Assembly (NCBI GenBank): GCA_963783385.1
Contig: CAWANJ010000001.1
Location: 717,154-781,153 of the forward strand
Source: an uncultured Gemmatimonadales bacterium
GTDB lineage: Bacteria > Gemmatimonadota > Gemmatimonadetes > Palauibacterales > Palauibacteraceae
Reading direction: 5' to 3'
Length of the DNA stretch: 64,000 bases
In this document: positions 24,251 through 63,464 of the stretch, piece after piece
How the letters are laid out: every line of letters starts with the position of its first letter
Position numbering within the stretch: position 1 is the first letter of the stretch
Notes under the pieces: model-generated
What the model saw: the letters and a program-made list of their open reading frames with translations, nothing else
What the model was told of the DNA's origin: nothing
The model's database searches: none
Translations under genes and position numbers: made by a program

Positions 24251-24269
24251 GCCAACGAACGAGTTAAGC
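24251..24269 (+). promoter_or_regulatory. attI-like primary recombination site
   Basis: GCCAAC-GAACGA-GTTAAGC; the only cassette start not preceded by a folded attC-like site. Confidence 0.6.
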
Positions 24270-24300
24270 GCCACACGTATCCTTCAATACGGAGTGAATC

Positions 24301-24987
24301 ATGGCTGGTGAACGGCAAGGGTTTCCAATGATTCCCATCAGGGCATGGTGGGCGCTCAGAAAGAGGTTTCGGCTCACCATGCCTAAGGAGGTCACCGCGA
24401 CCTATGTCGCATCTGCGTTGGACATGACACCCCGTTCGGCAGAGGCCAACGTGCTTCCAAGCCTGCGCCAGATGGGACTTATCGACGCTGACGGCAAACC
24501 GAGTGACCTCGCCAACAGATGGCGCGATGACGACGAGTATGCTGACGTCGCCGAGACTATTCGAAGCGAGGTATACCCGAGGGAACTGCTCGATCTGGCA
24601 CCGGCGGGGCATGCCGATCGAAGTACCGTTCAATCTTGGTTTGCGCGTCATACGGGCGCAGGTGAGAGCGCGGCGAGGAAGATGGCAGCAGTCTACATGA
24701 TACTGATCGACGCCGATCCGGGTCATGCGCAGGGCAATAAGAGCGGAACTGGGACACCTCGCAGATCGAAGCGCAAGCCGTCCAAGAGGAAGAAGAAGAA
24801 GGAGACCGGGACCAGGCCGGACGCTCAAACGGATGCAGACAATCAGGATGATGAGCCGCGGCGACCTTCCCTTCCCCAGGTGGCATTCAACATTCAGGTT
24901 GTGCTGCCTTCCGATGGGAGCGCGGAGACCTACGATCAGATTTTTGCCAGCATCGCGAAGCACCTCCTGAGCGGCCCGACTGAGTGA
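24301..24987 (+). CDS. Cassette 1 gene A: DUF5343-like protein
   Basis: LRQMGLIDADGKPS motif, basic linker, C-terminal NIQVVLP...YDQIFASI. Confidence 0.6.
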   Translation: MAGERQGFPMIPIRAWWALRKRFRLTMPKEVTATYVASALDMTPRSAEANVLPSLRQMGLIDADGKPSDLANRWRDDDEYADVAETIRSEVYPRELLDLAPAGHADRSTVQSWFARHTGAGESAARKMAAVYMILIDADPGHAQGNKSGTGTPRRSKRKPSKRKKKKETGTRPDAQTDADNQDDEPRRPSLPQVAFNIQVVLPSDGSAETYDQIFASIAKHLLSGPTE

Positions 24988-25574
24988 CGGAATCGTCTGG
25001 GAGTAAGTGGCTTCACGAGGCCGCCCTAAACGCCAAGGGCGCGCAAGACTCCATCGACGCATTGCTTGGCGCCAACGAGACTCCATCTACGAAGAACTTG
25101 CGTGTCGAGGATGTTGAGGGTATCGGCTCAGCGGCCATCAGGGCTGCACTTGAGAGGGTCTCACCAGAGTTAGCGCGCAGCTACGATCAAATCCTCGAGG
25201 ACATTGCCGACCGCTCCCGTAAGTCATGGGCGGGTACTGCGCACGAGATCCGTGAGACGCTTGCTGCACTGCTAAGGTATATGGCCTCTGACGAGGAGGT
25301 CCAAGCACAGGCGTGGTACATTCAAAATTCGAACACCAATGGGCCCACACAGAAGCAGCGAGTCCGCTACATCTTGGAGACTCAATCTCCCTCGTCCAAG
25401 AGGGCAGATGTGGTCAAAGAGGTGTCGGTCCTTGAAGATCGAATTGGAAGGCTGGTTCGCGCCACATACGCACGAGCGAGCGATGCGGCACACCGTTTCA
25501 AGGGGCGGCGCGAGGTTATTCGAATACTCCGATACTTTGAGGTGTTCGCCCGCGATCTCATGGATCTTGACTAG
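24984..25574 (+). CDS. Cassette 1 gene B: predicted nuclease (pPIWI-associating nuclease/HEPN-like)
   Basis: AHEIRE...DEEV...WY...PTQKQRVRYIL and C-terminal SDAAH; GTGA overlap with gene A. Confidence 0.5.
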   Translation: MTESSGSKWLHEAALNAKGAQDSIDALLGANETPSTKNLRVEDVEGIGSAAIRAALERVSPELARSYDQILEDIADRSRKSWAGTAHEIRETLAALLRYMASDEEVQAQAWYIQNSNTNGPTQKQRVRYILETQSPSSKRADVVKEVSVLEDRIGRLVRATYARASDAAHRFKGRREVIRILRYFEVFARDLMDLD

Positions 25575-25588
25575 TGAGGACGTGCAGC

Positions 25589-25690
25589 GCTTAACACGAC
25601 GGGTGCCGCTTCACCGCCTGCGGCGGCTCGCCCTTCGGGACGCCCGCTCGCTGGGACTCGCGGGCGTCGGCAACCGCGGGGACGTTAGAC
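25589..25690 (+). repeat. attC-like site family A (~100 bp, 12 copies)
   Basis: TAACACGACGG(G/C)TGCCGC...GGCAACCGC..GGACGTTA; copies start 25589, 31971, 41789, 44180, 48153, 55519, 56927, 58770, 59521, 60912, 61696, 63221 (last has AGC for AAC). Confidence 0.88.
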
Positions 25691-25876
25691 GCCAGGTCCC
25701 CAAGACGGGGGTGATCGATTCCCGATTCGGAGGCGATGTCCCGAACCGCTGCCGCGAGAGGCGCAGCTCAGGCCGACCCCCGCTCGGAGGGAGAGAGAGC
25801 CTCCGAATCGAAGCTGAAGAGCGAATCGCTTAGCAGGTTGGAAGACAGGGCCACCGCTTGGATCGGGGGACCCGGC

Positions 25877-26032
25877 GTCTAACAGGATGGGTAGCGGCTC
25901 GCGCGCGAGGGCGCGCTCGCTTCAACCTGCTAGGCTTTTCGAAGGCGGGGATTCGGTGCGGGCTGCTAATCGAGGATCGGTCCGGCAGCGCAGAGCGGGC
26001 CAAGCAGGTTCGCTACCCACCGGACGTTAAGC
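25877..26032 (+). repeat. attC-like site family B (~156 bp, 7 copies)
   Basis: TAACAGGAYGGGTAGCG...AACCTGC...GCAGGTTCGCTACCCACCGGACGTTA; starts 25877, 27833, 28518, 29308, 32603, 34446, 62346. Confidence 0.88.
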
Positions 26033-26082
26033 GTCACGCTTATATCTCACCAACCTTGCTCAACGGATGTGGGCACCGGCCA

Positions 26083-26712
26083 ATGGAAACACTCAAGCCA
26101 CTTGACGAGATCTGCGAACCGGACACGCGACATACGATCTTCGGGGGATTTGATCCCGAGGGAGTCAAGGGCGAGGAGGGCGTTAGCCTTCAGACACAGT
26201 ATGCACAGATGGAGCGCCTGGAATTGCCAAAGTCTGTGCCCGAGACCGTTCGCTCGGCTTATGCGGTCACCCGCATGCTATGGGTCTACGGATGGTTCTA
26301 TTGGCCCTTCTACACACTCGCGCTCCTCCACGCCAACACCTGCCTTGAGATGGCACTCCATCAACGCTTCCTCAAGGACGGCTTGTACGATGAAGAGGGC
26401 GACTCATCTAGGAAGGCAAAGAACCGGACGCTAAGCTGGCTGATAAAGAGAGCCGTTGAGATGGGCTGGTTGGAGGACGAGGCTTTCGAGCACATTCGAT
26501 GGTGGACCCGGCAGACGCCTCCGTTCGAGAATGAGGGAGACGAATCGGGACACCAGACCGCACCCGATCCTCAGCGGTATGCGAAGACGCTGGCCTCGAC
26601 CATTCCGAGCACCCGAAATGCGCAAGCCCATCCGGGGCACTATTCGCACGGCTTCCCGCAGGTACTGCCACTTCAGAACGCTCGGGACATCATTGTGCAG
26701 TTGTTCATGTAG
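26083..26712 (+). CDS. Cassette hypothetical protein with a HEPN-like R-x4-H motif
   Basis: LEMALHQRF...TLSWLI...TRNAQAHP. Confidence 0.6.
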   Translation: METLKPLDEICEPDTRHTIFGGFDPEGVKGEEGVSLQTQYAQMERLELPKSVPETVRSAYAVTRMLWVYGWFYWPFYTLALLHANTCLEMALHQRFLKDGLYDEEGDSSRKAKNRTLSWLIKRAVEMGWLEDEAFEHIRWWTRQTPPFENEGDESGHQTAPDPQRYAKTLASTIPSTRNAQAHPGHYSHGFPQVLPLQNARDIIVQLFM

Positions 26713-26731
26713 CGCATTGGGGACGCGCGAC

Positions 26732-26887
26732 GCTTAACAGGACGTGTGGCGGCTCGCGCGCCAAGGCGCGCTCGCTTCAACCTGCGGAATGCTGGATGAA
26801 GCAGTCAGGGGAAACGAGACATGTAGCATATATCAGTCAGGCGAACGAGAGTGGCCCGCAGGTTCGCCACCCGCCAGAACGTTATCG
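26732..26887 (+). repeat. attC-like site family D (3 copies); further families listed in evidence
   Basis: B-like outer arms with ATGTAGCATATRTCAGTCAGGC interior at 26732, 27491, 31133; related family at 28883, 35153, 45086; singleton sites at 33754, 36366, 42651, 46409, 47153, 51956, 54595. Confidence 0.85.
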
Positions 26888-26994
26888 GACCTGAGCCGCT
26901 CGGCTAGCACGAGTGGATTGGTGGTTGGAACCCCTACGGCCCGGTGTACAGGTATCTGCTTGAGCAAGTGCCCGCGGCGGGAGGACTTCACTCA

Positions 26995-27558
26995 ATGTCG
27001 ATCCAAGCCTCGATCGCATCCTTATGCACGGTGCTGGCGGCTGTCTTCATGACCTTCGCGGTGCCCCCCAGGGGGACCCAGGCCCAGTCGGTCAAACTCC
27101 CGGCGCCGAACGTTCGTCTATGCTATGCGGACTGTGACAGCATCCCCTCGCTCCCCGATCACGCGGAGCCACACCTCGCGAACCCCTCCGTCATGTTTCA
27201 GGCCATGACGGAGGCGTACCGACAGAGACCCAAGACGGCTGCGATCGGTGGCAGCGCTACCGTGGCGATCCTCATTGGCCAAGATGGTTCGGTCCGAGAG
27301 GTTCGTCTCATCACCAGCTCTGGCCACGCTACAATCGACACCATGGCCGTAGCGGTCGGCAGCGTGATCCGGGCCGCCCCCCGGCCTGGAAGCAAGAAGG
27401 TGCATGCCCGCTGGTACGAGATGCCCATCGCCTTCGAGACGAGAGATGATGCGAGACAGCCGGTCTACGCCCCGTGTCGGAGATCAAGTCCGATAACAGG
27501 TCGGGTGGCGGCTCGCGCGCCAAGGCGCGCTCGCTTCAACCTGCGGGATGTCGCTTGA
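26995..27558 (+). CDS. TonB C-terminal-domain-like secreted protein; stop codon falls inside the downstream site
   Basis: Signal peptide, GSATVAILIGQDGSVREVRLITSSGH...PIAF. Confidence 0.6.
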   Translation: MSIQASIASLCTVLAAVFMTFAVPPRGTQAQSVKLPAPNVRLCYADCDSIPSLPDHAEPHLANPSVMFQAMTEAYRQRPKTAAIGGSATVAILIGQDGSVREVRLITSSGHATIDTMAVAVGSVIRAAPRPGSKKVHARWYEMPIAFETRDDARQPVYAPCRRSSPITGRVAARAPRRARFNLRDVA

Positions 27559-28175
27559 AGCCGTCAGCGAAGACGGCCCATGTAGCATATATCAGTCAGG
27601 CGGACGCGGCGGGCCCGCAGGTTCGCCACCCGCAAGGACGTTAGACGCCAGGTCCCCAAGACGGGGGTGATCGATTCCCGATTCGGAGGCAATGTCCCGA
27701 GCCGCTGCCTCCAGAAGCGCAGCTCGAGCCGAGTTCCGCCCGGAGGGAGAGAGAGCCTCCGAATCGAAGCTGAAGAGCGAATCGCTTAGCAGGTTGGGAG
27801 GCAGGGCCGCCGCTTGGATCGGGGGACCCGGCGTCTAACAGGATGGGTAGCGGCTCGCGCGCAAAGGCGCGCTCGCTTTAACCTGCTGAGGCCTCTCGCA
27901 GATGGGGATCCGATGCGGGCTGCTGATCGAGGATCGGTCCGGCATCCGAGAGCGGGCCAAGCAGGTTCGCTACCCACCGGACGTTAGGCGCCAGGTCCCC
28001 AAGACGGGGGTGATCGATTCCTGATTCGGAGGCGAGGTCCCGAGCCGCGGCCTCAAGAGGCGCAGCTCGAGCCGGACTCCGCTCGAAGGGAGAGAGAGCC
28101 TCCGAATCGAGGCTGAAGAGCGAATCGCTTAGCAGGTTGGAAGGCAGGGCCACCGCTTGGATCGGGGGACCCGGC

Positions 28176-28331
28176 GCCTAACAGGATGGGTGGTGGCTCG
28201 CGCGCGCTCGCGCGCTCGCAGCAACCTGCGGTAGCTTTTCGAAAAGGGGAGGCGATGTCGGCGGTCGATTCGGACGCGTCCAGCCCTACGGGTCAGTCCA
28301 GCGCAGGTTCACCACCCACCGGACGTTAGAC
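28176..28331 (+). repeat. attC-like site family C (~152-157 bp, 9 copies, all attached to gene-less cassettes)
   Basis: TAACAGGATGGGTGGTG...GCAGGTTCACCACCCACCGGACGTTA; starts 28176, 29650, 29990, 30328, 32260, 32945, 34789, 35497, 36712 (split by IS1595). Confidence 0.88.
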
Positions 28332-28706
28332 GCCAGGTCCCCAAGACAGGGGTGATCGATGCCCGATTCGGAGGCGATGTCCCGAACCGCGGCCGCGAGA
28401 GGCGCAGCTCAGGCCGACCCCCGCTCGGAGGGAGAGAGAGCCTCCGAATCGAGGCTGAAGATCGAATCGCTTCGCAGGTGAGCAGGCAGGGCCGCCGCTT
28501 GGATCGGGGGACCCAGCGTCTAACAGGATGGGTAGCGGCTCGCGCGCGAGGGCGCGCTCGCTTCAACCTGCTGAGGCTTCTCGAAGGTGGGGATTCGATG
28601 CGGGCTGCTGATCGAGGATCGGTCCGGCAGCGCAGAGCGGGCCAAGCAGGTTCGCTACCCACCGGACGTTAGACGGAATTCCAAAGGATTCTGAGGGAGC
28701 AGAGGA

Positions 28707-28871
28707 ATGCGCACACCGAGGCCACAGGGCTGGAGACCCACAATGTCCGCAGCCGCAGCAGCCGGTGCTGCCGGTCTCGGGGTCCCGACACACTCCCCTG
28801 TCTGGACCGCCTTCGGCGCACTCGTCGGTGCCACGATCGGTTACCTCGTCGCACTTCGACTAGACAAGTAG
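28707..28871 (+). CDS. 54-aa small membrane peptide (glycine-zipper-like), not in the ORF track
   Basis: MRTPRPQGWRPTMSAAAAAGAAGLGVPTHSPVWTAFGALVGATIGYLVALRLDK; purine-rich RBS; fills cassette 28668-28889. Confidence 0.6.
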   Translation: MRTPRPQGWRPTMSAAAAAGAAGLGVPTHSPVWTAFGALVGATIGYLVALRLDK

Positions 28872-29064
28872 AGAGGAACTCCGTCTAACAGGACGGGCGG
28901 CGGCTCGCGCGCTCTCGCGCGCTCGACCCAACCTGCGGTAGCTTTTCAGAAATCGGAACGGTGAGGTGGCGACCGGTGGAGAACCGCTCCGCCCTGCTCT
29001 TCAGGCCACCGCAGGTTCGCCACCCGCCGGGACGTTATCCGCAATCTCAAGAGGGTTAGGTTCG

Positions 29065-29283
29065 ATGCGCCGGTTTGACGTCTTCGGTCGAATGATGGGA
29101 GTCGATCGAAAGGACGACCGTTGGCAGGTCTACGATCTCGGGCCCGACGGCAAGCGTCGCGAAGCCCGCGACATCATGATCCCGGCATCGGTCCCCGAGG
29201 AGCAGCTCGCTCTCTACCTTGCGGAGATCTTCCATGAGTCAGCGTCGCCACGACGGCCCGAGGTGCTGGAACTGGACCCCTGA
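29065..29283 (+). CDS. 72-aa hypothetical cassette protein
   Basis: MRRFDVFGR...GPDGKRR...YLAEIFHE; fills cassette 29034-29314. Confidence 0.65.
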   Translation: MRRFDVFGRMMGVDRKDDRWQVYDLGPDGKRREARDIMIPASVPEEQLALYLAEIFHESASPRRPEVLELDP

Positions 29284-30531
29284 GCCAGCACGGGAGCGAG
29301 AGTCTGCGGATAACAGGATGGGTAGCGGCTCGCGCGCTGCGCGCACTCGCTTCAACCTGCTGAAGCTGTTCGGAGGTGGGGATTCGGTGCGGGCAGCTGA
29401 TCGAAGATCGGTCCGGCAGCGGAGAACCGGCCAAGCAGGTTCGCTACCCACCGGACGTTAGGCGCCAGGTCCCCGAAACGGGATGTGCCGGGTTCCGATT
29501 CGGAGGCGAGGTCCCGAGCCGCTGCCTCTAGAAACGCAGCTCAGGCTGAGCTCCACTCGGAGGGAGAGGATGCCTCCGAATCGAGGCTGAAGAGCGAATC
29601 ACTTAGCGAGATGACAGGCAGGGCCACCGCTTGGATCGGGGGACCCGGCGCCTAACAGGATGGGTGGTGGCTCGCGCGCTCGCGCGCTCGCAGCAACCTG
29701 CGGTAGCTTTTCGAAAAGGGGAGGCGATGTCGGCGGTCGATTCGGTCGCGTCCAATCCAGCGATTCAGGCCAACGCAGGTTCACCACCCACCGGACGTTA
29801 GGCGCCAGGTCCCCGAAACTGGATGTGCCGGGTTCCGATTCGGAGGCGGGGTCCCGAGCCACTGCCTAGAGAGGCGCAGCTCAGGCTGAGCTCCACTCGG
29901 AGGGACAGAATGCCTCCGAATCGAGGCTGAAGAGCGAGTCGCTTAGCGAGAGGGAAGGCAGGGCCACCGCTTGGATCGGGGGACCCGGCGCCTAACAGGA
30001 TGGGTGGTGGCTCGCGCTCGCGCGCTCGCGGCAACCTGCGGTAGCTTTTCGAAAAGGGGAGGCGATGCCGGCGGTCGATTCGGACGCGTCCAATCGAGCG
30101 AATCAGGCCAACGCAGGTTCACCACCCACCGGACGTTAGGCGCCAGGTCCCCAAGACGGGGGTGATCGATTCCTGATTCGGAGGCGAGGTCCCGAGCCGC
30201 GGCCTCAAGAGGCGCAGCTCGAGCCGGACTCCGCTCGAAGGGAGAGAGAGCCTCCGAATCGAGGCTGAAGAGCGAATCGCTTAGCAGGTTGGAAGGCAGG
30301 GCCACCGCTTGGATCGGGGGACCCGGCGCCTAACAGGATGGGTGGTGGCTCGCGCGCGCTCGCGCGCTCGCAGCAACCTGCGGTAGCTTTTCGAAAAGGG
30401 GAGGCGATGTCGGCGGTCGATTCGGACGCGTCCAGCCCTACGGGTCAGTCCAGCGCAGGTTCACCACCCACCGGACGTTATCAGAAACGCGCCCCAGCTG
30501 ATTGGAAATAGGAGATTGGTACTGCAGCGCC

Positions 30532-30819
30532 CTAGGTGGAGGACGCAGCCTTCCTGGCTGGCGGAGGAGCCGGGGTACCATCCAGCATGCCGCGGATGCT
30601 GATGTCTTCGTCAACGTCGGGCCAGTGAATGCCTTGACCAGCTCCGATAAGACGGAAGTTGGTGCGCTGTTGGGGCGTGGCTTCGCTCAAGCGCCACGAC
30701 CACGCGAGCGGGACACTGATCGTACGGCCGTCTGTCAGGCGCGCGATGATCTCATTGTCGGTCACCTCGACGTCGGTCGCCAAGGGTTCAGACGTGGCCG
30801 CAGTGTTCGTCCCAGGCAT
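30532..30819 (-). CDS. DUF2442 protein (TA-like pair)
   Basis: LTDGRTISVPLAWSWRL...GIHWPDVDEDISI. Confidence 0.85.
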   Translation of the reverse strand: MPGTNTAATSEPLATDVEVTDNEIIARLTDGRTISVPLAWSWRLSEATPQQRTNFRLIGAGQGIHWPDVDEDISIRGMLDGTPAPPPARKAASST

Positions 30820-31030
30820 TCGAGATCCTCTGGATGTGGGACTCAATCAAGCCCCGGATCCTGTTGAGCTCGCGCGGAGCGAAGCCATGGTTGCGAGCGA
30901 GAACCAACGGGTCCAGCCAGAACTTGCACGTGGACCGATCACGCTCGACATGCACATGCTTTGGCTCCCTGCAATCGAAGCTGTAGAAGAAGAACCGGTA
31001 CGGTCCGGAGATGTCTGAAATGGTTGGCAT
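30788..31030 (-). CDS. DUF4160 protein (TA-like pair)
   Basis: MPTI...GPYRFFFYS...EPKHVHV...KFWL. Confidence 0.85.
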   Translation of the reverse strand: MPTISDISGPYRFFFYSFDCREPKHVHVERDRSTCKFWLDPLVLARNHGFAPRELNRIRGLIESHIQRISNAWDEHCGHV

Positions 31031-31328
31031 CACGCGTCCCGGCCCGAGGCTTCTCTACCCTCAGATGCTAGCATACACCGAGGCGCCTCGCCAAGAGCCG
31101 CGTTGGCCTCGAGGTCCACGGTCGCGCGAATCTGATAACAGGACGGGTGGCGGCTCGCGCGCCAAGGCGCGCTCGCTTCAACCTGCGGAATGTCGGTTGA
31201 AGCAGTCACTGGAAGCGGGCAATGTAGCATATGTCAGTCAGGCAAACGAGGGTGGCCCGCAGGTTCGCCACCCACCGGGGCGTTATGTCAAATGGCGCGC
31301 CATTGGCCTACGAGGCTAGATTTCTCGT

Positions 31329-31616
31329 ATGACACCGGCGGTGGCTGAGCTTCGGGAGCAGGTGCGAGACGTCATGCGGAAGCGTGGGGTCGTCCGAGCC
31401 AGTGTGTTCGGGTCCGTGGCCCGCGGGGAGGATCACCCGGCGAGCGATGTGGACTTCCTCGTCGAGCTGGAAGAGGGACGGACCCTCCTCGACCTGGCTG
31501 GCCTGCGGCTGGATCTCGAGGACCTTCTGGAGCGCGACGTTGACGTAGCCACACCGGCTTCTCTCCATCCCCAGCTCCGCGAACGTATCCTCGAGCAGCA
31601 GGTCCCGATCTTGTGA
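31329..31616 (+). CDS. MNT antitoxin (copy 1)
   Basis: VFGSVARGE...SDVDFLVE. Confidence 0.88.
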   Translation: MTPAVAELREQVRDVMRKRGVVRASVFGSVARGEDHPASDVDFLVELEEGRTLLDLAGLRLDLEDLLERDVDVATPASLHPQLRERILEQQVPIL

Positions 31617-31957
31617 CGCGCTCGGCTCGGATCCTTCTCGGGGACATCCTTGAGGCAGCCGAGCTGCTCGAACGCTACACGGCCGGCATCTCCCACCAGC
31701 AATTCGCGAACAACCTCGAGAAGCAGGACGCCGTCGCCCGCCGGATCGAGGTCATTGGGGAAGCCGTCAAAGGCCTCCCCGAGTCCCTTCGCCAGCGGCA
31801 CCCCGAAGTGCCGTGGCGGGAGATTGCCGGAGCGAGGGATGTCCTGATTCACGAATACTTCCGAATCGACGTCAGGCTCGCCTGGGAGATGGTTCAGAAG
31901 GACATCCCGGACCTGGCAGCCAAGGTCCGGAAGATCCTGGGTGAACTCGAAGACTGA
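31613..31957 (+). CDS. HEPN/DUF86 toxin (copy 1)
   Basis: DAVARRIEVIGEA, PWREIAGARDVLIHEY. Confidence 0.88.
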   Translation: MTRSARILLGDILEAAELLERYTAGISHQQFANNLEKQDAVARRIEVIGEAVKGLPESLRQRHPEVPWREIAGARDVLIHEYFRIDVRLAWEMVQKDIPDLAAKVRKILGELED

Positions 31958-33207
31958 GGTCTGCCACTTCACATAACACGACGGCTGCCGCTTCGCCGCC
32001 TGCGGCGGCTCGCCCTGCGGGACGCCCGCTCGCTGAGACTCGCGGGCGTCGGCAACCGCGGGGACGTTAGACGCCAGGTCCCCGAAACAGGGGATGGTCG
32101 GTTCCCGATTCGGAGGCGATGTCCCGTAGCGCTGCCTCGGTGAACGCAGCTCAGGCTGAGCTCCACTCGGAGGGAGAGGATGCCTCCGAATCGAGGCTGA
32201 AGAGCGAATCGCTTAGCGAGATGGAAGGCAGGGCCACCGCTTGGATCGGGGGACCCGGCGCCTAACAGGATGGGTGGTGGCTCGCGCGCGCTCGCGCGCT
32301 CGCAGCAACCTGCGGTAGCTTTTCGAAAAGGGGGAGGCGATGTCGGCGGTCGATTCGGACGCGTCCAGCCCAACGAGTCAGGCCAGCGCAGGTTCACCAC
32401 CCACCGGACGTTAGACGCCAGGTCCCCAAGACGGGGGTGATCGATTCCCGATTCGGAGGCGATGTCCCGAACCGCTGCCGCGAGAGGCGCAGCTCAGGCC
32501 GACCCCCGCTCGGAGGGAGAGAGAGCCTCCGAATCGAAGCTGAAGATCGAATCGCTTAGCAGGTTGGGAGGCAGGGCCGCCGCTTGGATCGGGGGACCCG
32601 GCGTCTAACAGGATGGGTAGCGGCTCGCGCGCGAGAGCGCGCTCGCTTCAACCTGCTAGGCTTTTCGAAGGTGGGGATCCGATACGGGCTGCTGATCGAG
32701 GATCGGTCCGGCAGCGGAGAGCGGGCCAAGCAGGTTCGCTACCCACCGGACGTTAGGCGCCAGGTCCCCGAAACAGGGTGTGCCGGGTTCCGATTCGGAG
32801 GCGATGTCCCGAACCGCTGCCTCCAGAAGCGCAGCTCGAGCCAGCTTCCGCTCGGAGGGAGAAAGAGCCTCCGAATCGAGGCTGAAGAGCGAATCGCTTG
32901 GCGAGATGGCAGGCAGGGCCACCGCTTGGATCGAGGGACCCGGCGCCTAACAGGATGGGTGGTGGCTCGCGCGCGCTCGCGCGCTCGCAGCAACCTGCGG
33001 TAGCTTTTCGAAAAGGGGAGGCGATGTCGGCGGTCGATTCGGACGCGTCCAGCCCAACGAGTCAGGCCAGCGCAGGTTCACCACCCACCGGACGTTATAA
33101 GACATGCCATAGACGGGTGGGCCGATGGACCGATATCTACGTTGGCCTTGCGCCCCTTCGTGTCCGATGGGGAGCTGGGCAGCCGCTCTGGCCCGATCGG
33201 AGATGAG

Positions 33208-33606
33208 ATGACAGACCTCAACGAGTTCACGCTGGAGCAGGCCGAGGCGGCGGCCGCGAAGTTGTGGGCGTTCGGCAGCGCCCCTTTCCCGATGGCGGAC
33301 GGCGCGGTCATACAGGGTCATGTTGAGAAAGCTGTGACTGATACGGCCATCGCTTTCGCCATCCACGTGCGCCGCCTCCTAGATAATCACGGCATCCGTA
33401 CCCGATTCACGCTTGATGAGCCGTTTGTGCACTGGTCACCAACCGGCTCTGCGCCGAAGGTGGCGGTTCTTCGGGATGCCTTGAATCGAATCGTGCATGC
33501 CATTGATTTCGAGGTCGGCTTTGAGCGTCTACCGGATGATCAACACAAGATCAAAGGTGGCGCGATCACGGTCCTGGTACCTTCGGACCAGAACCGACCA
33601 ACGTGA
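33208..33606 (+). CDS. Hypothetical cassette protein, probably frameshifted at the 3' end
   Basis: LRDALNRIVHA motif; protein-like sequence continues in another frame. Confidence 0.5.
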   Translation: MTDLNEFTLEQAEAAAAKLWAFGSAPFPMADGAVIQGHVEKAVTDTAIAFAIHVRRLLDNHGIRTRFTLDEPFVHWSPTGSAPKVAVLRDALNRIVHAIDFEVGFERLPDDQHKIKGGAITVLVPSDQNRPT

Positions 33607-33875
33607 GGAAGGGCTGATCGACGTGTTCGCGCTTGCGTCCTGGCTTCTACCACCAGGTCTTGCCCGCGGTGCGTGGTCTTGGCCCCGATATGGCGTAACT
33701 TCCAGGTGGCGGAATGCTATTGATGCCTGGGTGTGCGGTGTGGTGGGCACGTCTTATAACAAACGGGTGCCGCCTTCGCTCGCTGCGCTCGCTCCGGAGA
33801 ACACGGCCCGCGGTGCGGGCCGCGTCGGCACCCTAGGACGTTATGTGCAAGTTCGGAACTAGCGCGAAGGTAGGA

Positions 33876-36279: not shown

Positions 36280-36793
36280 AGGCGGTCCGGAAGCATTGGT
36301 AGAGGATTGTTAGCGCCGAGGTGGTGTGGCGACGAGCGGTGCTGTAGTACGCACCGGCACCCATCAGTTAACAAACAAGTTGCGCCTACGCCGCGCATGC
36401 GCGGCTCCGGGGAACACCGGCGCAAGGCACGCGGGCCGTGGGAAGCGTGCCGAGAATGTGTCGAAGAGCGGTGCTCGACGGGCCGTGACGGACGCGCCGG
36501 CGTCGCAACTTTAGGAACGTTAGGCGCCAGGTCCCCGAAACAGGGTGTGCCGGGTTCCGATTCGGAGGCGATGTCCCGAACCGCTGCCTCCAGAAGCGCA
36601 GCTCGAGCCAGCTTCCGCTCGGAGGGAGAGAGAGCCTCCGAATCGAGGCTGAAGAGCGAATCGCTTGGCGAGATGGCAGGCAGGGCCACCGCTTGGATCG
36701 AGGGACCCGGCGCCTAACAGGATGGGTGGTGGCTCGCGCGCGCTCGCGCGCTCGCAGCAACCTGCGGTAGCTTTTCGAAACGGAACTATGCAC

Positions 36794-36822
36794 TTGACAA
36801 ACCCATGCGCCCATGGTACCTT
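36794..36822 (+). promoter_or_regulatory. Sigma70-type promoter for the transposase, overlapping the left TIR
   Basis: TTGACA-17 nt-TACCTT with TGn extension. Confidence 0.6.
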
Positions 36823-36845
36823 TCATAGTAGAAAGGGGAGCTACC

Positions 36846-37754
36846 ATGAGCATGACGTTCGCGGAAGCATTGGCTCTGTCGGAGAGCGAGGCAAGGACCT
36901 ATCTGGAGCGCATCCGCTGGCCGGAAGGTCCCGTGTGCCCCCATTGCGGCGCGTCGGACCGGATCTATGACCTCCAGGGTAGCGCGCACCGCGAGGGCCT
37001 CTACAAGTGCGGATCCTGCCGGAAGCAGTTCACGGTCACGGTCGGTACCGTCATGCACCGGACCAAGATCCCGCTCCGCAAGTGGGTTCTGGCCTTCCAG
37101 ATCCTGTGCGCGTCCAAGAAGGGTGTCTCGGCCCTGCAGCTCCAGCGGATGCTGGACCTCGGGTCCTACCGGACCGCATGGCACATGGCGCACCGCATCC
37201 GGCTTGCCATGCGGGAAGAGCCACTCGCCACCATGCTCCATGGGCACGTGGAGGTCGATGAGACCTACATTGGCGGCAAGACACGGAAGGGCATCCGTGG
37301 GCGGGGCTCGGAGCGGAAGACCCCGGTCCTGGCACTCGTGGAGCGGAACGGCCGCGTGCGGTCGCAGCCCGTCCAGCGCGTGTCCGGCAAGGAACTCAAG
37401 GCCGCGATCCGGGAGCAGGTTCACAAGTCGGCCGCGATCCACACCGACGAACTGGCCTCCTACAAGGGCATTGGTGCCGAGTTCGAGGGCGGACATCACG
37501 TGGTGCGGCACGGACGGGGCGAGTACGTTGCCGGTCCGGCGAGCACCAACACCGCTGAGAGCTACTTTGCCCTGCTCAAGCGGTCGATCCACGGAGCCTA
37601 TCACAGCGTGTCGAAGAAGCATCTGGGGCGCTACCTCGACCACCAGGGCTTCCTGTGGAACACCAGGGACCTTCCGGATGGGGCGAGAGTGGATGCGGCG
37701 GTCCGCGGAGTCGGTGGCAAGCGGCTTACGTATTCGACGCCACGTAACCGGTGA
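36846..37754 (+). CDS. IS1595-family transposase
   Basis: RWPEGPVCPHCG zinc ribbon, VEVDETYIGG, IHTDE, TNTAESYF. Confidence 0.95.
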   Translation: MSMTFAEALALSESEARTYLERIRWPEGPVCPHCGASDRIYDLQGSAHREGLYKCGSCRKQFTVTVGTVMHRTKIPLRKWVLAFQILCASKKGVSALQLQRMLDLGSYRTAWHMAHRIRLAMREEPLATMLHGHVEVDETYIGGKTRKGIRGRGSERKTPVLALVERNGRVRSQPVQRVSGKELKAAIREQVHKSAAIHTDELASYKGIGAEFEGGHHVVRHGRGEYVAGPASTNTAESYFALLKRSIHGAYHSVSKKHLGRYLDHQGFLWNTRDLPDGARVDAAVRGVGGKRLTYSTPRNR

Positions 37755-37830
37755 GGATTGCGTGTTACAACGTAACCTTGTTACAGCTAACAGCGATGAC
37801 TAGATTCGATGGGCTACTTGACAGCGGCAA

Positions 37831-37932
37831 TGCGGGCGACCGGCTTTGCACCGGCACGGGGCAGCCTCGGGTAAGGGTTTGCGCCCCACCGACTCCCAAG
37901 GTCGGCGTGTCTACTAGTTCCACCACGCCCGC
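37831..37932 (-). tRNA. tRNA-like element: class II (Leu-type) body, TGG (Pro) anticodon, atypical T-loop, no encoded CCA
   Basis: GCGGGCG/CGCCCGC-A acceptor; GTG-GAACTAGTAGA-CAC D-arm; CCGAC-CTTGGGA-GTCGG anticodon arm; GGGGC...GCCCC long variable arm; GCCGG-TGCAAAG-CCGGT T-arm. Confidence 0.7.
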
Positions 37933-38094
37933 AGCGGAGGTCCAGGCCGGGCTGGTGCGGCGTACCGTACCGCCCATTCGGGGCGCGTACCCAACGCCCC
38001 TTACCCGGTCCTGGCCCGTCAACCGGTCGCGGCTACGCCCGCGCCCGGCCCCTCACGGCCCTCACGGACACCACCCGTGGGGGCCGTCTTCATC

Positions 38095-38505
38095 CTATCG
38101 GATCTTGTACCGTTTCTCGCGGCTTCCCTTCACGGGATCCAGCTTTACGTACACGTTGTCCTCGGTGGTCCCGTGATGCAGGTCCCAGCGCACGGAGTTC
38201 TTATTGAGCACCTCTCCCGTGCTGGCGCTCCGCTCCACGATCTCATTGATCGTAAGTGGGCTGTCCGCTCCGCGAAGGATGGTGGTGACTCGCTCTCGAA
38301 TGCTGACATCTCCGGCAGCACCGGCCGATGCGTGGGCCTTTCCATTGCGCCCGGCACCGGCTGCACCCGTCTTCTGGACGGCGTCAACCAGCTCCTTCAG
38401 CGTCTCGTGGACCAACCGCTGGAGTTCCAGTTTGCGCTCCGCCTGCCGGATCTCCACCTCGCTATCCTCGAGCTTCTTCCGGAGCAGATCCATGACTTCT
38501 GTCAT
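38095..38505 (-). CDS. IS passenger: coiled-coil plus winged-HTH-like protein
   Basis: Heptad-like N-terminus; IRERVTTIL...PLTINEIVE...KNSVRWDL. Confidence 0.55.
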   Translation of the reverse strand: MTEVMDLLRKKLEDSEVEIRQAERKLELQRLVHETLKELVDAVQKTGAAGAGRNGKAHASAGAAGDVSIRERVTTILRGADSPLTINEIVERSASTGEVLNKNSVRWDLHHGTTEDNVYVKLDPVKGSREKRYKIR

Positions 38506-38630
38506 TGTTTCGGAACTCCTTTCGGCGGGCCAGCCATCACTCAGTGTTGGTGGACTGATGGAAGGTAAGCGCTCAGGCATGGAGGAGCAAGGAGGCCATC
38601 CGATGGGCCATCACTCGAGGAGGGCATCCT

Positions 38631-38801
38631 ATGAGTAAGCCGCATGACAAGGAGTCAGGAGAGCGGGATTCGCTCTCCCTTCATCCCCTGGAGTTGGATG
38701 AAGCCATGGCCGGTTTCCTTCAAGTGGACCCCAAGAAGGTGAAGGAGGCGGAACATGAAAGGCAGCATGAAGACGAGAATGACACTCGGGAGGACCGATG
38801 A
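38631..38801 (+). CDS. 56-aa IS passenger peptide, ATGA-coupled to the RM gene (not in the ORF track)
   Basis: GAGGAGG RBS; MSKPHDKESGERDSLSLHPLELDEAMAGFLQVDPKKVKEAEHERQHEDENDTREDR. Confidence 0.6.
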   Translation: MSKPHDKESGERDSLSLHPLELDEAMAGFLQVDPKKVKEAEHERQHEDENDTREDR

Positions 38802-41347
38802 GGTCGCTCGTCGTTGACGCCCTATCTGGCCGAGAAGTAATCGCCGGCCCAGAGGAACGGGACGCAACGCAGCCTTTTGTCTTCTATCTGACGCAGCGCC
38901 TCGGCTGGCATCCGAAGCAGATCATTACTCGTCCTCAGTGGCGAGTACCCAAGTCCCCGTCGTCGCCAAGAAGCTCGGGCTATCCAGTAGACATTGCCAT
39001 CTTTGACTCAGAGGAGTACGCGGGAGACCCCGACCACATCCAGATCATTGTAGAGTGCAAAGCGCCAAGCGAGGATCAGGGAATAGGGGAGCTCAAGACC
39101 TACCTGGGCTTAGAGCCAGAAGCACGCCTTGGCATTTGGTTCAACGGTGAGAAGCATGTGCTGGTATGGAAGGTGGCGGACGGCTTCTCGGTCGACAGAT
39201 ATGGACCAGTGCCGCGCTCAACCGACCCGTTAGCGCCAACCGAATCGCAGCCTCCGCTTCGATATGTAGACCTCGTACCGCCGCCCAACCTAGGCGAGAT
39301 TTTCCGTAGGCTTCGGGACCGCATTGCCGCGCAGGACACGCACGTCAACAGGGATGAGTTCATTCTAAACGATCTTGCCAACCTACTCGTGTGCAAGATA
39401 GCCGACGAGCAGGAAGGACAATTGGAGCCCAATCGGCCGATGGCGTTTCAGCTGGCGGGTTCGCAGAAAGCCACAGCGGAGTCGATTCGCCGCTACTTCA
39501 CGGAGATCAAGAATCGACTAACATCCGTGTTCACGGACAGAGATGAGCGATTGCACATTGACGACGAGAGCTTGGAAGAAGTGGTGCGAACACTTCAAGC
39601 CTACATTTTGCTCGACCATGACAGACATGCCGTGGGCACGGCGTTTCAGGTCCTTCGCGGTCGAGCGTTAAAGGGCGAGGAGGGCTCCTATTTCACCCCG
39701 CCGCCGCTCGTTGACTGCGTGGTGTCCATCCTAGACCCTGATCACGGCACTCGACTCGTTGATCCGGCTTGTGGAACGGGCGGATTCTTGGCGGCTGCTC
39801 TCGATCACGTTTTCACTGGGATCGACAACAAGAAGCTGTCCGCCGATGCGAAGACACGCGCTAAGACCACATGGGCGGGCGAATCTCTCATTGCGGTAGA
39901 CAAGGATGCAGTATCCACGAAGCTATGCAAGGCATACCTCACCCTTCTTGGAGATGGGCGGTCACACGTCTACCGGGCAGATGCGATTGACCGGACCGCG
40001 TGGGGCGAGCGGGCCGATGACCTGCAACGGGTTGTGGCGAGCGGGACCTTCGACCAGGTCATGACTAACCCGCCGTTCGGATCGAAGCTCAAGATTAGCG
40101 CGGATACCGGTCGCCAGGAGCAGTTGCTGGTATGCAGGAGGTGGGTCGACGCAGGATCTGAATGGAAACCAACCGACGAATGGACGGACCAGCAGCTCGG
40201 CATCGCATTCTTTGAGCGTGCTGTGGATCTCCTAAGCAACGGAGGAAATCTCGCCATCGTTCTTCCGGAGACCTTTCTGTTCTCCCCAAGCTTCAAATGG
40301 TTCATTGACTGGATTTGCCGAACTCTTACAGTTACCCATGTTGTCGACGTTCCCATGGTAGCATTCGAGGAGTTTTGCCGCGCCAAGACGTGCCTCGTCT
40401 TCGTCCGAAAGACCAAGCCATCCCCCGGACATTGCACGGTCATGAGCTTCCCACGATCTATCGGACAAGACAAGCGGGGCAAGCCTCTCTTCGCGCTCAA
40501 TGGAGAGGGCGTAAGAAAGGAGGGGGAGGGCCTTGACAATGAAATGGCGGAGGCCGTGAAGGAGATCGTTTCGAGGGGCTACAGGGGCAAGACGAAAACG
40601 GATCGCAAGGGAAGCCATGGTCGCTATTGCTTCACAGTAGCTCAAGCGGACATCAGGAGGCGTGGCGTTCTTGTCCCCCGCTTTTGGTGGAGGTCACATA
40701 CTGACGATGCTTTACATGAATGGTCAGAGAAGCACGACAGCCGGATACTGAGCCTCGGTGAGCTTGCAGACCGCGGAGCGATTGAAGCCTTCAGCGGACA
40801 TGGCTCGCCACCAGGAAATGCGAGGGGAACCGGAAAGGTCCCTTATGTGAAGGTTACCGATCTGAAGAACTGGCGCATCAACGAAAACCCGACAAACTTC
40901 ATTCACCAGAGCATCGCAGAGAAGTATTGGGCACGCGGACCGTCACTTGAGTACGGAGATTTGATCTCTCCCGCTCGCGCTTCATTGAACATCGGACAGT
41001 TTTCGATGGTGCTACCGTGGCAGACTCGCATCGTGGTGACTCGTGAGGTGCTAATCTTACGCGTCCACGACAACGATCTAGGGATAGACCCGTTCCTGCT
41101 GCTTGTGCTCCTTTCCTTGAAAGTGGTGCAGGACCAATACGAGAACCTCGCTCTCATGCAGACCAACAGGGAGCATTGAGGAGACCACTGGCGCGAAGTC
41201 CAAATCCCGATACCGGCCACAGAGTCTGCCAGGAAGCAACTGTCGCGTCCCGTGCGGGATTACTTCGATGCGATCATAGCGGCTCGCGAGTCATACCGAA
41301 GAATCTTCACCAAGTACGACCGTCAGGATTTCGGCACAAGGCCATGA
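38798..41347 (+). CDS. Fused restriction endonuclease/N6-adenine methyltransferase/specificity protein (Type IIG-like); in-frame TGA at 41177-41179
   Basis: VDIAIF...VECK nuclease motif, YFTP, DPACGTGGFL, NPPF, TRD-like tail; frame stays open for 55 codons after the TGA. Confidence 0.85.
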
Positions 41348-54441: not shown

Positions 54442-54710
54442 GCTAATGCAACGGGCGAGGACCCGATTGGCGGATTATTCGGATCGCCGGCTCAGGAGTC
54501 GCCTCACTGGGGCCACTCGATGCAGGTTCACCGGCTGAACGATCTCCTGCGGAGACTGGAGATTACAGACTCAGAGTGGGCCAGCATCGACGCCGCATAA
54601 CAAAAGAGTTGCCGCTTCCGCTCACTGCGTTCGCTCCAGTGAGCACGGCTCAAAGAGCCGCGCCGCCAACTCCTGAACGTTATGCGCCACGAACCTGGGG
54701 ACAATCAGTC

Positions 54711-55493: not shown

Positions 55494-55653
55494 AGCCGTG
55501 CCAACGCCGGTTCGCGGCGCATAACACGACGGCTGCCGCTTTGCCGCCTGCGGCGGCTCGCCCTTCGGGACGCTCGCTCGCTGGGACTCGCGGGCGTCGG
55601 CAACCGCGGGGACGTTAGCGGAAATCGTACCCTTCATCTGAGTTGGGAAGGGG

Positions 55654-56874: not shown

Positions 56875-57043
56875 TCCAGGAGGGTGCATCGATAGTGAGG
56901 CCGTCGCTAGCATCGTCGACGACTTCCGCTAACACGACGGCTGCCGCTTCGCCGCCTGGGGCGGCTCGCCCTCCGGGACGCCCGCTCGCTGGAACGCGCG
57001 GGCGTCGGCAACCGCAAGGACGTTATCTGCAATCGATTGGGCG

Positions 57044-57213
57044 ATGACTGAAAGGTGGTTTGACACGGAAGGCGACGACGCAGCTCAAAAGCGAAGCAAA
57101 GTTTTCTGGGATAGGATGCGTAACGATCTGCAGTCAGGCGAGTTCTGGGCGGATGAGATCAAGACGTTACGGGACCAACCGGAGGAACGCCTCAGACTCG
57201 CCCTCGAACACCT
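57044..57213 (+). pseudogene. 5' fragment of a cassette gene truncated by IS3
   Basis: ORF starts 22 nt into the cassette and runs into the IS end. Confidence 0.55.
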
Positions 57214-58530
<1,317 letters not shown>

Positions 58531-58953
58531 CTGGGGCAACGAGGGACTCAGTAGTGCCCTTGAACACAGCATTGGCTCTCTGATTCGCCACAGCGATGCC
58601 GTGCAGGAACAGGAAGACAACCCGAGCATCAAGCGGTACTTAAAGTTCTTGGTTAAGCTCGACCAAGTGATTGCTTTCAGCCTGCACGCGAAGGAGCTGC
58701 TCGCCCCTGTCGTTATGCACTTTCTTGGTTCGGGACAAGGTGGCCAGTAGCCTGTGGGACCGGGCCTTCGTCTAACACGACGGCTGCCGCGTCGCCGCCT
58801 GCGGCGGCTCGCCCTCCGGGACGCCCGCTCGCTGGGACTCGCGGGCGTCGGCAACCGCGGGGACGTTATGAGACATTGCCAGACCCGGGATGGATTGGGG
58901 GGCACGCGAGGGGTGGATTGACCGCGGAGCGCACCGGGGGGTAACGTTCACCC

Positions 58954-61682: not shown

Positions 61683-61882
61683 GGTCTGCCACTTCACATA
61701 ACACGACGGCTGCCGCTTCGCCGCCTGCGGCGGCTCGCCCTGCGGGACGCCCGCTCGCTGAGACTCGCGGGCGTCGGCAACCGCGGGGACGTTATGTGAA
61801 ACCGCCCTTCGGCTGGATCGTCCTGGTTCGAAGGGGTACTGTACAGAGGGTTGTGTAGACACCAGGCACAGGACATTGACCC

Positions 61883-62092
61883 ATGCGATCCTTTACGGCT
61901 GTCATCGAACGAGATTCGGATACCGGCCTGTACGTTGGACACGTTCCGAGCTTCCCCGGAGCGCACACCCAGGCGGAGACGCTTGACGAACTGCAACGGA
62001 ACCTGCGAGAGGTGATCGAGCTCCTCCTGGAGGACGGCGAACCGGAACTCGAGGTGGAGTTCATCGGGGTCCAGCGAGTGGACGTGAGCTAG
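61883..62092 (+). CDS. hicB: HicB-family antitoxin
   Basis: YVGHVPSFPGAHTQAETLDELQRNLREVI. Confidence 0.88.
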   Translation: MRSFTAVIERDSDTGLYVGHVPSFPGAHTQAETLDELQRNLREVIELLLEDGEPELEVEFIGVQRVDVS

Positions 62093-62095
62093 CCG

Positions 62096-62320
62096 ATGGC
62101 GCGGCTCCCGGTCCTCAAGGCCCGAGAGGTGATTCGCATTTTGAACGCTCTTGGGTTTGAGGAGGTCCGGCAGCGAGGGTCCCACAAGCAGTTCCGGCAC
62201 CCCGATGGACGCGTGACCACGGTGCCGGTCCACCAGGGTCGAGACATCTCCCCCACGCTCCTGCGGCAAATCATCAAGGACGTCGGGCTCCCACACGATG
62301 AGTTTCGCAAGCACCGTTAG
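62096..62320 (+). CDS. hicA: HicA-family toxin
   Basis: GFEEVRQRGSHKQFRHPDGRVTTVPVH. Confidence 0.9.
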   Translation: MARLPVLKAREVIRILNALGFEEVRQRGSHKQFRHPDGRVTTVPVHQGRDISPTLLRQIIKDVGLPHDEFRKHR

Positions 62321-62608
62321 GGCTGGCTCTTCGGTGGGCAGATTCACATAACAGGACGGGTAGCGGCTCGCGCGCAGAAGCGCGCTCGCTTCAACCTGCT
62401 GCGGCATCTCGGAGGCGGGAATCCGATGCGGGCTGCTGATCGAGGATCGGTCCGGCAGCAGAGAGCGGGCCAAGCAGGTTCGCTACCCACCGGACGTTAA
62501 GCTACAGCCAGCGCTCATTCTGGGCTGTGGTTCTGGAATAGCTGAACCCATCGGCCCGAGAAGCTAGATTAGAGGCGCCGGTGTGGCTCGAGAGCTCATG
62601 GAGGGACG

Positions 62609-62830
62609 ATGCCGGAACTGATAACGTCGGACCCCGCCGTCATGGGGGGAAAGGCCGTGGTGACGGGCACGCGCATCACGGTTGAAACCATCCTGGAGCG
62701 GCTAGCAGCGGGCGAATCGATCGAGCAGCTCGTTGACGCGCTGCCCCATCTGACTCGCGAGGGCGTGCGTGCGGCTCTCGAATACGCCGCGGAATCGCTA
62801 GGCGCCGACGTCGTATACCCTTTGCCCTGA
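62609..62830 (+). CDS. DUF433 antitoxin
   Basis: ITSDPAVMGGKAVVTGTRITVE. Confidence 0.88.
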   Translation: MPELITSDPAVMGGKAVVTGTRITVETILERLAAGESIEQLVDALPHLTREGVRAALEYAAESLGADVVYPLP

Positions 62831-62839
62831 CCGAGCCAC

Positions 62840-63202
62840 GTGCGGCTCGTTTGCGACGAAGGCGTTGATCGACAGATCGTCGAGAGGCTTCGGGCTGGCG
62901 AGCACGAGGTCGTCTACATTGCCGAGGTGGCCCAGGGTGCCACCGACGAGGAGGTCTTGCGCCGCGCCGCTCAGGAGAAGGCGCTCCTCCTAACGACCGA
63001 CAAAGACTTTGGGGAGCTGGTATTTCGGCAGCAGCGGTCCCCTCATGGCGTCGTTCTCCTTCGCCTCGCCGGGCTATCCCAAGAGCGCAAAGCCGCAGCT
63101 GTAGCCACCGCGCTGGCGCGATACGGCCACGAGCTCGAGATGGCCTTCACCGTCATTCAGCCGGGGATCGTGAGGATCCGGCCCTTGCGCCACGGAGACT
63201 GA
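62840..63202 (+). CDS. DUF5615 PIN-like toxin
   Basis: RLVCDEGV...TDEEVL...TTDKDFGEL. Confidence 0.88.
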   Translation: MRLVCDEGVDRQIVERLRAGEHEVVYIAEVAQGATDEEVLRRAAQEKALLLTTDKDFGELVFRQQRSPHGVVLLRLAGLSQERKAAAVATALARYGHELEMAFTVIQPGIVRIRPLRHGD

Positions 63203-63464
63203 ATGTCGGCGCTGGCCATTGCTTAGCATGGCGGGTGCCGCTTCCCCGCCTGCGGCGGCTCGCCCTGCGGGACGCCCGCTCGCTGAAACTCGCGGGCGTC
63301 AGCAACCGCGGGGACGTTATCTGAAAGTGGTCCCGTGCTGAGTCAGGGCGCTGATGAGCTCAAGTCGAAAGGAAGACAGCACAGACTCATCTGGAGGCTA
63401 CGATGCTGACACGAACACTGTGTCTCGGCTTCCTGCTCGTGGCAGGAGTATGCCCGGCGGTCGC

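Follow-up and report, generated by a model that had tools for sequence, protein, structure and literature searches.

A cassette array occupies positions 24263..63326 (forward strand) of a 64,000-nt stretch of DNA (hereafter the window; G000:C1:717154-781153) from the 3.5-Mb, 92% complete genome of an uncultured Gemmatimonadales bacterium. The array consists of 41 cassettes bounded by 41 attC sites of two main types, ~90 nt and ~145 nt in length, and it probably continues beyond the end of the window; G+C content falls at 24 kb, from ~72% to 58-65%. Upstream of the array, and co-oriented with it, is the gene for a 387-amino-acid IntI-like tyrosine recombinase, P0001 (21504..22667, forward strand), which lacks the IntI-specific insertion I2 and carries an additional N-terminal domain resembling HARP. 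The segment from the recombinase gene to the first cassette junction (22668..24262, forward strand) is referred to here as the platform. With confidence slightly above even, we regard the region as a chromosomal-integron cassette array of a variant kind.

The attC sites were found by the recurrence of the conserved inner sequences between R'' (...TAAC) and R' (GTTA...), leaving the outer flanks unused. Palindrome alignment was unsuited to finding them: owing to the asymmetry of the central spacers (5 versus 8 nt), none of the true sites was detected in this way. The ~90-nt type has the form TAAC-acgacggGtgccgc ... gtcggcaaccgcggggac-GTTA, and the ~145-nt type has the form TAAC-aggatgggtagcgg ... 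gttcgctacccaccggac-GTTA. Examples are 55519..55620 (type A, R'' to R') and 25877..26032 (type B, ~145 nt, from a family of 342-bp cassettes), both on the forward strand. As in integrons, the cassettes are in tandem, the 41 sites combine R'' (..AAC) and R' (GTT..) boxes with inner L''/L' pairing, and the start of each cassette completes its own attC, the two ends being complementary.

The initial annotation of this DNA had proposed that the complementarity between the two ends of a cassette runs for about 13-18 bp, well past the 7-bp core, and is interrupted by a mismatch fixed at position 11. To examine pairing, the flank of each cassette's R'' was reverse-complemented and compared with the start of the same cassette. 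The first ~16 bases of the 41 cassettes mirror the bases that precede their own attC. In the cassette that starts at 54679, for example, the left arm of the outer R stem (54679..54695, forward strand; GTTATGCGCCaCGAACC) has A at position 11 (54689), and the right arm (55509..55525, forward strand; the flank plus the R'' box, ending ...TAAC) has the mirroring C at 55515. It is through this stem that the predicted bottom-strand hairpin closes. These ends and the two other pairs given in the initial annotation (58865/59527 and 44275/45092) were exact on rechecking, and its counts were reproduced to the last cassette: position +11 is A in 41 of 42 starts, the mirror position is C in 38 of 41 ends, and the exceptions are also mismatched. 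Thus, position 11 is Watson-Crick in 0 of 41 cassettes, and in 38 the top strand has A opposite C, so that the bottom strand has T·G. The remaining three cassettes have C opposite A (26881) or A opposite A (30477 and 61791).

Duplicate cassettes were merged; together with the removal of one cassette with fewer than six of seven core matches (57022, which bears an insertion sequence, IS), this left 31 distinct window cassettes. Among these, position 11 is never Watson-Crick (29 A/C, 2 A/A), while positions 8, 9 and 10 are Watson-Crick in 29, 31 and 26, and positions 12-17 in 30, 27, 28, 24, 18 and 13, against a background of ~8. Position +8 is G in 28 of the 31, in line with the preference described in the initial annotation. 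Each of the four Watson-Crick pair types is found over positions 12-16, and 24-30 of the 31 cassettes are paired at positions 12-15. The pairing is also specific to the ends of the same cassette: over positions 12-16, self pairs average 4.10 of 5 matches versus 1.51 for non-self pairs from the same array, and of 11 variable positions, 9.84 match the cassette's own start versus 4.66 for the start of the next cassette. As a check on chance, 39 copies of GTTANNNGNNA were counted in the window, against 5.72 expected and at most 14 in any of 100 shuffles; 38 of the 39 are on the forward strand within the array. The position-11 pairing pattern is real and beyond chance. Because the outer positions covary, and because their pairing is specific to own ends, the data support selection on the outer stem as a stem. 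A crossover at position 10/11 was considered and rejected, as positions 1-10 match the downstream (own) R'' and not the upstream one.

The mismatch has a single polarity in the A/C cassettes, with the wobble (T·G) falling on the bottom strand and A·C on the top. The remaining wobbles in the stem (positions 8-10 and 12-15) lean the same way, 35 being on the bottom strand versus 6 on the top; this polarity marks the bottom strand as the likely folded substrate. The explanation that we favor, with confidence just over even, is that the bottom-strand T·G wobble and the long R stem together serve as a landmark for an integrase that lacks I2 and bears a HARP-like domain. The wobble would be read out by the protein, the additional domain may take part, and recombination would be affected by changes at position 11.

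Folding predictions place the wobble in its structural context. The R box is predicted to close in every one of 35 window sites. In the usual variant fold, a 3-4-nt bulge follows the R box, a single unpaired T comes after 2-3 bp, and an 8-9-bp stem leads to a branched tip; the type A example at 55519..55620 has the R box, a 4-nt 5' bulge, 2 bp, a single unpaired T, a 9-bp L stem and a branched tip. Canonical sites of the phylum are predicted to fold in the manner usual for attC: beyond the R box and its adjoining 3-nt bulge, two single-base bulges interrupt the helix, the first after ~7 bp and the second a further ~6 bp along. Such bulges on the '' side number two or more in the predicted folds of 59 of 87 canonical sites, versus 0 of 35 variant sites in the window and 0 of 56 in other genomes. 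The variant sites thus lack the extrahelical bases that characterize integron sites, as far as predicted folds go. The suggestion that the position-11 mismatch acts in place of extrahelical bases gains support in that two-bulge hairpins and I2 are both missing. One conserved unpaired T, next to the central spacer, persists in 21 of 35 window sites, so that unpaired landmarks are not wholly absent.

The simplest alternative is that the mismatch is not read by any protein, and that A·C on one strand and T·G on the other only weaken the top-strand hairpin, a purely thermodynamic bias. Predicted energies are consistent with such a bias: the bottom strand is more stable than the top in 30 of 35 window sites and in 52 of 57 sites of other genomes, and the bottom-over-top difference is 2.85 kcal/mol in the window and 3.41 kcal/mol in other genomes, versus 0.89 kcal/mol for canonical sites. 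With position 11 converted to a Watson-Crick pair in silico, the mean asymmetry of window sites is -1.79 kcal/mol, compared with -3.11 kcal/mol before. The share of the wobble in the DNA nearest-neighbor model is only ~1.3 of 3.1 kcal/mol, however, which makes thermodynamics alone a weak explanation. By the same figures, the strand discrimination proposed in the initial annotation gains support from the polarity and from the greater predicted stability of the bottom strand, and is tempered by the wobble's modest share of the energy. Moreover, any position in the stem could provide a bias, yet position 11 (10 in some) is fixed across many genera, and the fixed G:C pair at position 8 suggests that sequence or shape is read out. 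We consider a purely thermodynamic origin unlikely, but not negligible.

Whether the stem and its mismatch are peculiar to this array depends on what canonical cassettes do. Self-pairing past the 7-nt boxes, reaching 9-11 nt, is reported for most cassettes (Bouvier 2009, PMC2727003), so that the proposed 13-18 bp is correct as a figure while the extension as far as 9-11 nt is ordinary for attC. Here, canonical cassettes are represented by two sets of Gemmatimonadota arrays (nine and four), by six class 1 cassettes carried on three plasmids, and by the published 9-11 nt. Canonical IntI scoring above the TIGR02249 cut-off is encoded by 125 of 301 Gemmatimonadota genomes (one locus being on a Gemmatirosa kalamazoonensis plasmid), and nine arrays beside such genes gave 83 distinct cassettes with at least six of seven core matches, 21 of 104 having been dropped. 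In these 83, pairing declines smoothly over positions 8-14 (78, 73, 58, 53, 44, 30 and 22), and there is no fixed mismatch. Over positions 12-16, self pairs average 1.70 of 5 versus 1.34 for non-self pairs, which is background. The six class 1 cassettes pair over 7-13 bp, and the position-11 rule is absent from them. A weak echo of the variant polarity is found at position 12 of the canonical arrays, where 17 of 83 cassettes have A/C-type mismatches and 2 have the opposite type. The fixed wobble and the outer extension are thus not general features of attC, although pairing past the core was already known. Canonical R boxes at these loci (L066-L084) have fixed outer bases of their own, G at position 9 and C at position 10, each in 62 of 83 cassettes, and all nine canonical integrons with an array have it downstream of intI and in the same orientation.

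Of the 301 genomes in the phylum sample, 22 encode relatives of the variant recombinase, as do 68 of the 201 genomes from one Gemmatimonadota family; a related-locus search with the recombinase returned two loci. Arrays of at least four sites lie downstream of the variant recombinase in 11 of 19 other genomes, and three further genomes have one or two cassettes with the variant grammar, giving co-oriented gene and cassette in 14 of 19. The 11 arrays, from other genera, gave 56 distinct cassettes after 28 of 84 with fewer than six of seven core matches, mostly reflecting missed sites, were dropped. Positions 12-15 are paired in 47-52 of the 56, and position 11 is Watson-Crick in 4, of A/C type in 50, and otherwise mismatched in 2. 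An Anaerolineae locus, L086, had too few sites and was left out.

The clearest comparison comes from four genomes that have arrays of both types. Of the 28 cassettes next to the canonical IntI, 24 are Watson-Crick at position 11 and none is of A/C type; 10 are paired at position 14 and 3 at position 15. Of the 22 cassettes next to the variant recombinase, 1 is Watson-Crick at position 11 and 19 are of A/C type; 18 are paired at position 14 and 16 at position 15. Because this contrast lies within single genomes, the end grammar tracks the adjacent enzyme and not the host. The grammar is linked to the integrase type that lacks I2 and bears the HARP-like domain, and to predicted hairpins that lack paired extrahelical bases.

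This contrast bears on the possibility that the region shows ordinary attC behavior combined with shared descent, the position-11 pattern being a frozen accident of copied cassettes. Such an origin would fit the 9-11-nt self-pairing reported for most cassettes (PMC2727003), a family of 16 near-identical cassettes in the window, and the weaker bias of the same polarity at position 12 of canonical arrays. However, once duplicates are merged, the positions next to it vary freely and covary, while position 11 itself remains non-Watson-Crick in 31 of 31 window cassettes and 52 of 56 elsewhere. A single transition would restore the pair, so drift would be expected to have done so, and a frozen accident would not explain a pattern that splits by integrase type inside single genomes. 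We judge this origin improbable.

The same genomes also speak to the idea that the adjacent recombinase is unrelated to the array, and that a canonical IntI acts in trans on a pool of cassettes whose grammar is simply that of the pool. Eight of ten genomes with variant arrays encode a canonical IntI elsewhere, and standard tools, which define IntI by its extra domain (PMC9668308), would call such arrays CALINs. On the other hand, no canonical IntI above the TIGR02249 cut-off was found in the variant-array genomes G000, G249, G287 and G342, of which G000 is 92% complete and G249 is a single contig. Gene and array retain their order and orientation in 14 of 19 genomes, the attI-type junction is conserved while the first cassette differs, and in genomes of both types each grammar is found beside its own integrase. 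Action in trans is, on this evidence, about as improbable as a frozen accident.

The recombinase itself departs from canonical IntI in a consistent manner. P0001 comprises the N-terminal HARP-like domain (residues ~20-82), a linker, a SAM-like core-binding domain and a catalytic domain, and a fold search with the whole protein confirmed the recombinase fold. Its best family is TIGR02249 (integron integrase), matched in two pieces with 223.7 bits, below the cut-off of 265, and it is nearer to IntIA than to XerD (151.8 versus 102.6 bits). Its closest relative in the PDB is VchIntIA (2a3v), with query residues 104-276 corresponding to chain residues 4-174 and 298-378 to 238-318; relative to VchIntIA, ~42 residues are missing exactly at I2. 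The spacing between the GKGxKxR and HxLRH motifs is 59-61 amino acids in 32 relatives versus 100-101 in 19 canonical IntI proteins (one of which, L045, comes from an unpublished genome, G097), a constant difference of 41 residues. Seventeen homologues all retain the catalytic R, K, H, R, H and Y. A quick maximum-likelihood tree groups the variant recombinases in a clade of their own (SH-aLRT 97), separate from that of canonical IntI (100), but does not resolve the branching order of the two clades and a third, Xer-like group. An I2-type additional domain around patch III is treated as defining for IntI (PMC9668308), and P0001 does not have one; in canonical IntI, a helix of I2 docks the extrahelical bases (PMC7790495). 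A complete genome (G224:C1) has six near-identical copies of another recombinase, a 297-amino-acid Xer-like protein that is 40% identical to P0001; every copy contains an in-frame TAG, and the gene looks like part of a multicopy mobile element.

The absence of I2, an element tied to single-strand recombination in canonical IntI (PMC7790495), together with the conservation of positions 8 and 11 on both arms, could suggest that half-sites are recognized as duplex DNA, with A versus G at position 11 distinguishing the R' and R'' arms and no hairpin being formed, but this is very improbable, since positions 5-10 and 12-16 are arbitrary and yet self-complementary (4.10 versus 1.51 of 5 over positions 12-16), which separate half-sites would not need, and since the 35-to-6 polarity of the wobbles is expected solely under intrastrand pairing.

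In the additional N-terminal domain, residues ~20-82 are conserved in the family, with the motif IRxxPGRRWDPxxRxWxVP, and the fold, predicted with high confidence, is beta-beta-alpha, beta-beta-alpha, beta (pLDDT 92.9). Sub-threshold matches to Pfam HARP (PF07443) occur in 8 of 17 homologues, the best with an E-value of 2.6e-4. A word-based search with the N-terminal region retrieved only four close relatives. A profile built from 17 N-terminal domains retrieved 3460 proteins, including genuine HARP proteins, such as P0008 (HARP, 40.5 bits) and P0060 (SNF2 plus HARP, 27.2 bits), and many tyrosine recombinases with one to four copies. In the tyrosine recombinases P0007, P0009, P0012, P0015 and P0022 (583-789 amino acids), three or four tandem HARP-like copies precede the SAM-like and catalytic domains. 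HARP domains recognize DNA by its structure, binding branched or junction forms, for which the support here is the title of a PDB entry. We speculate that the feature read by the HARP-like domain might be the wobble, the outer helix, or the junction of that helix with single-stranded DNA.

Several observations weigh against a protein-read wobble, or limit how far it can be generalized. The assignment of the N-terminal domain is weak: Pfam HARP matches the domain of P0001 with 13.1 bits (E 0.073), under the 25-bit cut-off, and the top Foldseek match, the SMARCAL1 HARP substrate recognition domain (4o66), is a weak and non-significant one (E 0.17, TM 0.45-0.49). The hairpin anatomy consists of minimum-energy predictions made with DNA parameters, the energy contributed by the wobble in these predictions is small (~1.3 kcal/mol), and the conserved unpaired T beside the spacer, as modeled, could itself be the landmark. 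Position 11 is not absolutely fixed across the variant lineage, as the four other-genome cassettes (of 56) that are Watson-Crick at 11 have a wobble at position 10 or 13 instead. The site finder needs a repeated inner attC sequence and misses divergent sites, and no array was detected downstream of the variant recombinase in 5 of 19 other genomes. Counting was restricted to cassettes with at least six of seven core matches, which removed 1 of 32 window cassettes, 28 of 84 from the other variant arrays and 21 of 104 from canonical arrays, and related genomes are non-independent samples. Lastly, a canonical IntI elsewhere in 8 of 10 genomes leaves room for action in trans.

Under the favored explanation, a landmark composed of the wobble and the long R stem, recombination might proceed as follows. 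In the excised cassette, the attC hairpin would be closed by a 15-18-bp R-box stem formed from the cassette's own two ends. This stem would consist of ten base pairs running outward from the crossover G, then at position 11 the fixed T·G of the bottom strand, and finally 4-6 covarying pairs; the G:C pair at position 8 is likewise fixed. The folded bottom strand would be the substrate for recombination. The wobble would lie one helical turn from the cleavage site and, with the long stem, would let the integrase choose both the strand and the R arm, taking over the role that extrahelical bases and I2 have in canonical integrons. The complete outer stem is possible only in the excised cassette; within the array, the R' flank is that of the next cassette. 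Positions 1-4, 8 and 11 alone are constant in both contexts, and it is these that excision can use.

There are parallels between this system and canonical integrons such as those of IntI1 and VchIntIA. Both have ...TAAC R'' and GTTA... R' boxes, a G|TT crossover-type junction, and a cassette start that completes its own R'; both have an imperfect hairpin with an asymmetric central spacer and a variable tip, an attI-type junction, and an IntIA-related recombinase. In contrast to canonical integrons, the variant integrase lacks the I2 or additional domain, scores below the TIGR02249 cut-off, and has an extra N-terminal HARP-like domain, while in the variant sites the R stem is longer (15-18 bp, versus 9-11), a fixed T·G (bottom strand) occupies position 11 and G:C occupies position 8, and the predicted folds do not have the pair of extrahelical bases. 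The variant and the nine canonical integrons of the phylum share an intI that is upstream of, and co-oriented with, the array, as in so-called "inverted" integrons. That term describes gene order only, and is silent on site grammar or a missing domain.

Another parallel is with XerC/XerD, which act on folded single-stranded dif-like hairpins of CTX phage: there, too, a recombinase without I2 uses a hairpin that mimics a duplex (PMC7790495). In contrast to the variant, the XerC/XerD system lacks cassette arrays, the R''/L''/L'/R' architecture and a HARP-like domain. SMARCAL1-type HARP (PF07443, 4o66) appears to have the beta-beta-alpha, beta-beta-alpha fold and a sequence motif in common with the domain described here, and SNF2-HARP proteins are retrieved by the profile of that domain. 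However, HARP of the SMARCAL1 type is fused to an annealing helicase, whereas the variant domain is fused to a tyrosine recombinase, scores below the cut-off and gives a weak structural match.

The left boundary of the array is informative about cassette turnover. The platform has 93% DNA identity over 1681 bp with that of a relative, L085, whose recombinase has 80% amino-acid identity to that of the window. The shared left flank runs to ...cacgccaacgaacga|GTTA and is followed by different first cassettes. The comparison of the two loci indicates that the right end of the platform, with the junction at 24263, would behave as an attI-type site at which cassettes turn over. According to Pfam matches, the platform encodes a nucleotidyltransferase (23564-23851) and HepT (23835-24182), as well as an HTH (HigA-like) open reading frame (ORF). 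The nucleotidyltransferase/HepT toxin-antitoxin pair has no flanking attC sites, and is therefore part of the platform rather than a cassette.

Within the array, the first cassette (24301-25574) encodes a DUF5343 protein and a protein with a predicted pPIWI-associating nuclease domain, making it a possible defense cassette. The 342-bp cassette is present in 16 near-identical copies (25684-36718) with other cassettes in between. It consists of a 200-bp body and a 145-nt attC, its longest ORF is at most 57 amino acids, and it has no match in Rfam; it is also the first cassette of L085. One attC (36718-41472) is split in its variable tip by an insertion of ~4.6 kb, with the R' half resuming at 41472. 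The insertion (approximate limits 36790..41330, forward strand) stands outside the stem grammar and carries an IS1595-family transposase (36813-37754) and a 793-amino-acid N6-methylase/Eco57I-like ORF (38798-41179). The only one of the 41 cassettes with unpaired ends, 57022-58776, carries an IS3-family element (57229..58480, reverse strand) with an HTH_Tnp_1 ORF (58160-58480, reverse strand), an rve ORF (57229-58155, reverse strand) and an ALIL frameshift pseudoknot (58086-58202, 109.8 bits); this cassette may be a fusion of two.

Integrons of Gemmatimonadota are already known (PMC8618304). I2 has been held to be essential and defining, an innovation that enabled recombination of single-stranded attC (PMC7790495, PMC9668308), and integron search tools call IntI by the extra domain (PMC9668308). 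According to Smyshlyaev et al. (PMC8138268), the insertion "is not fully conserved" within their integron-like subgroup. No account of cassette arrays with an integrase lacking I2, of a HARP-recombinase fusion in the context of integrons, or of a fixed wobble in the R stem of attC was found in the papers searched, although supplements, such as that of PMC8138268, may list such proteins. Judged from its sequences, a widespread lineage without I2 appears to break the I2 rule and yet keep arrays, an attI-type junction and hairpin sites.

These findings lead to a broader proposal that we hold tentatively, as a little less than an even chance: a second class of integron lacks I2, and its HARP-domain recombinase reads a long R stem marked by a wobble rather than extrahelical bases. 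This class would coexist with canonical integrons as an orthogonal system, and would have arisen independently as a solution to single-strand recombination, or else would be a relic that predates I2. If so, many "clusters of attC without integrase" may be complete elements, and two cassette dialects, each with its own enzyme, could share one cell. These natural parts would make the origin and the minimal needs of structure-specific recombination testable, and the position-11 wobble is the sharpest handle on the grammar, as it is a single base pair with a clear prediction for what should follow when it is changed.

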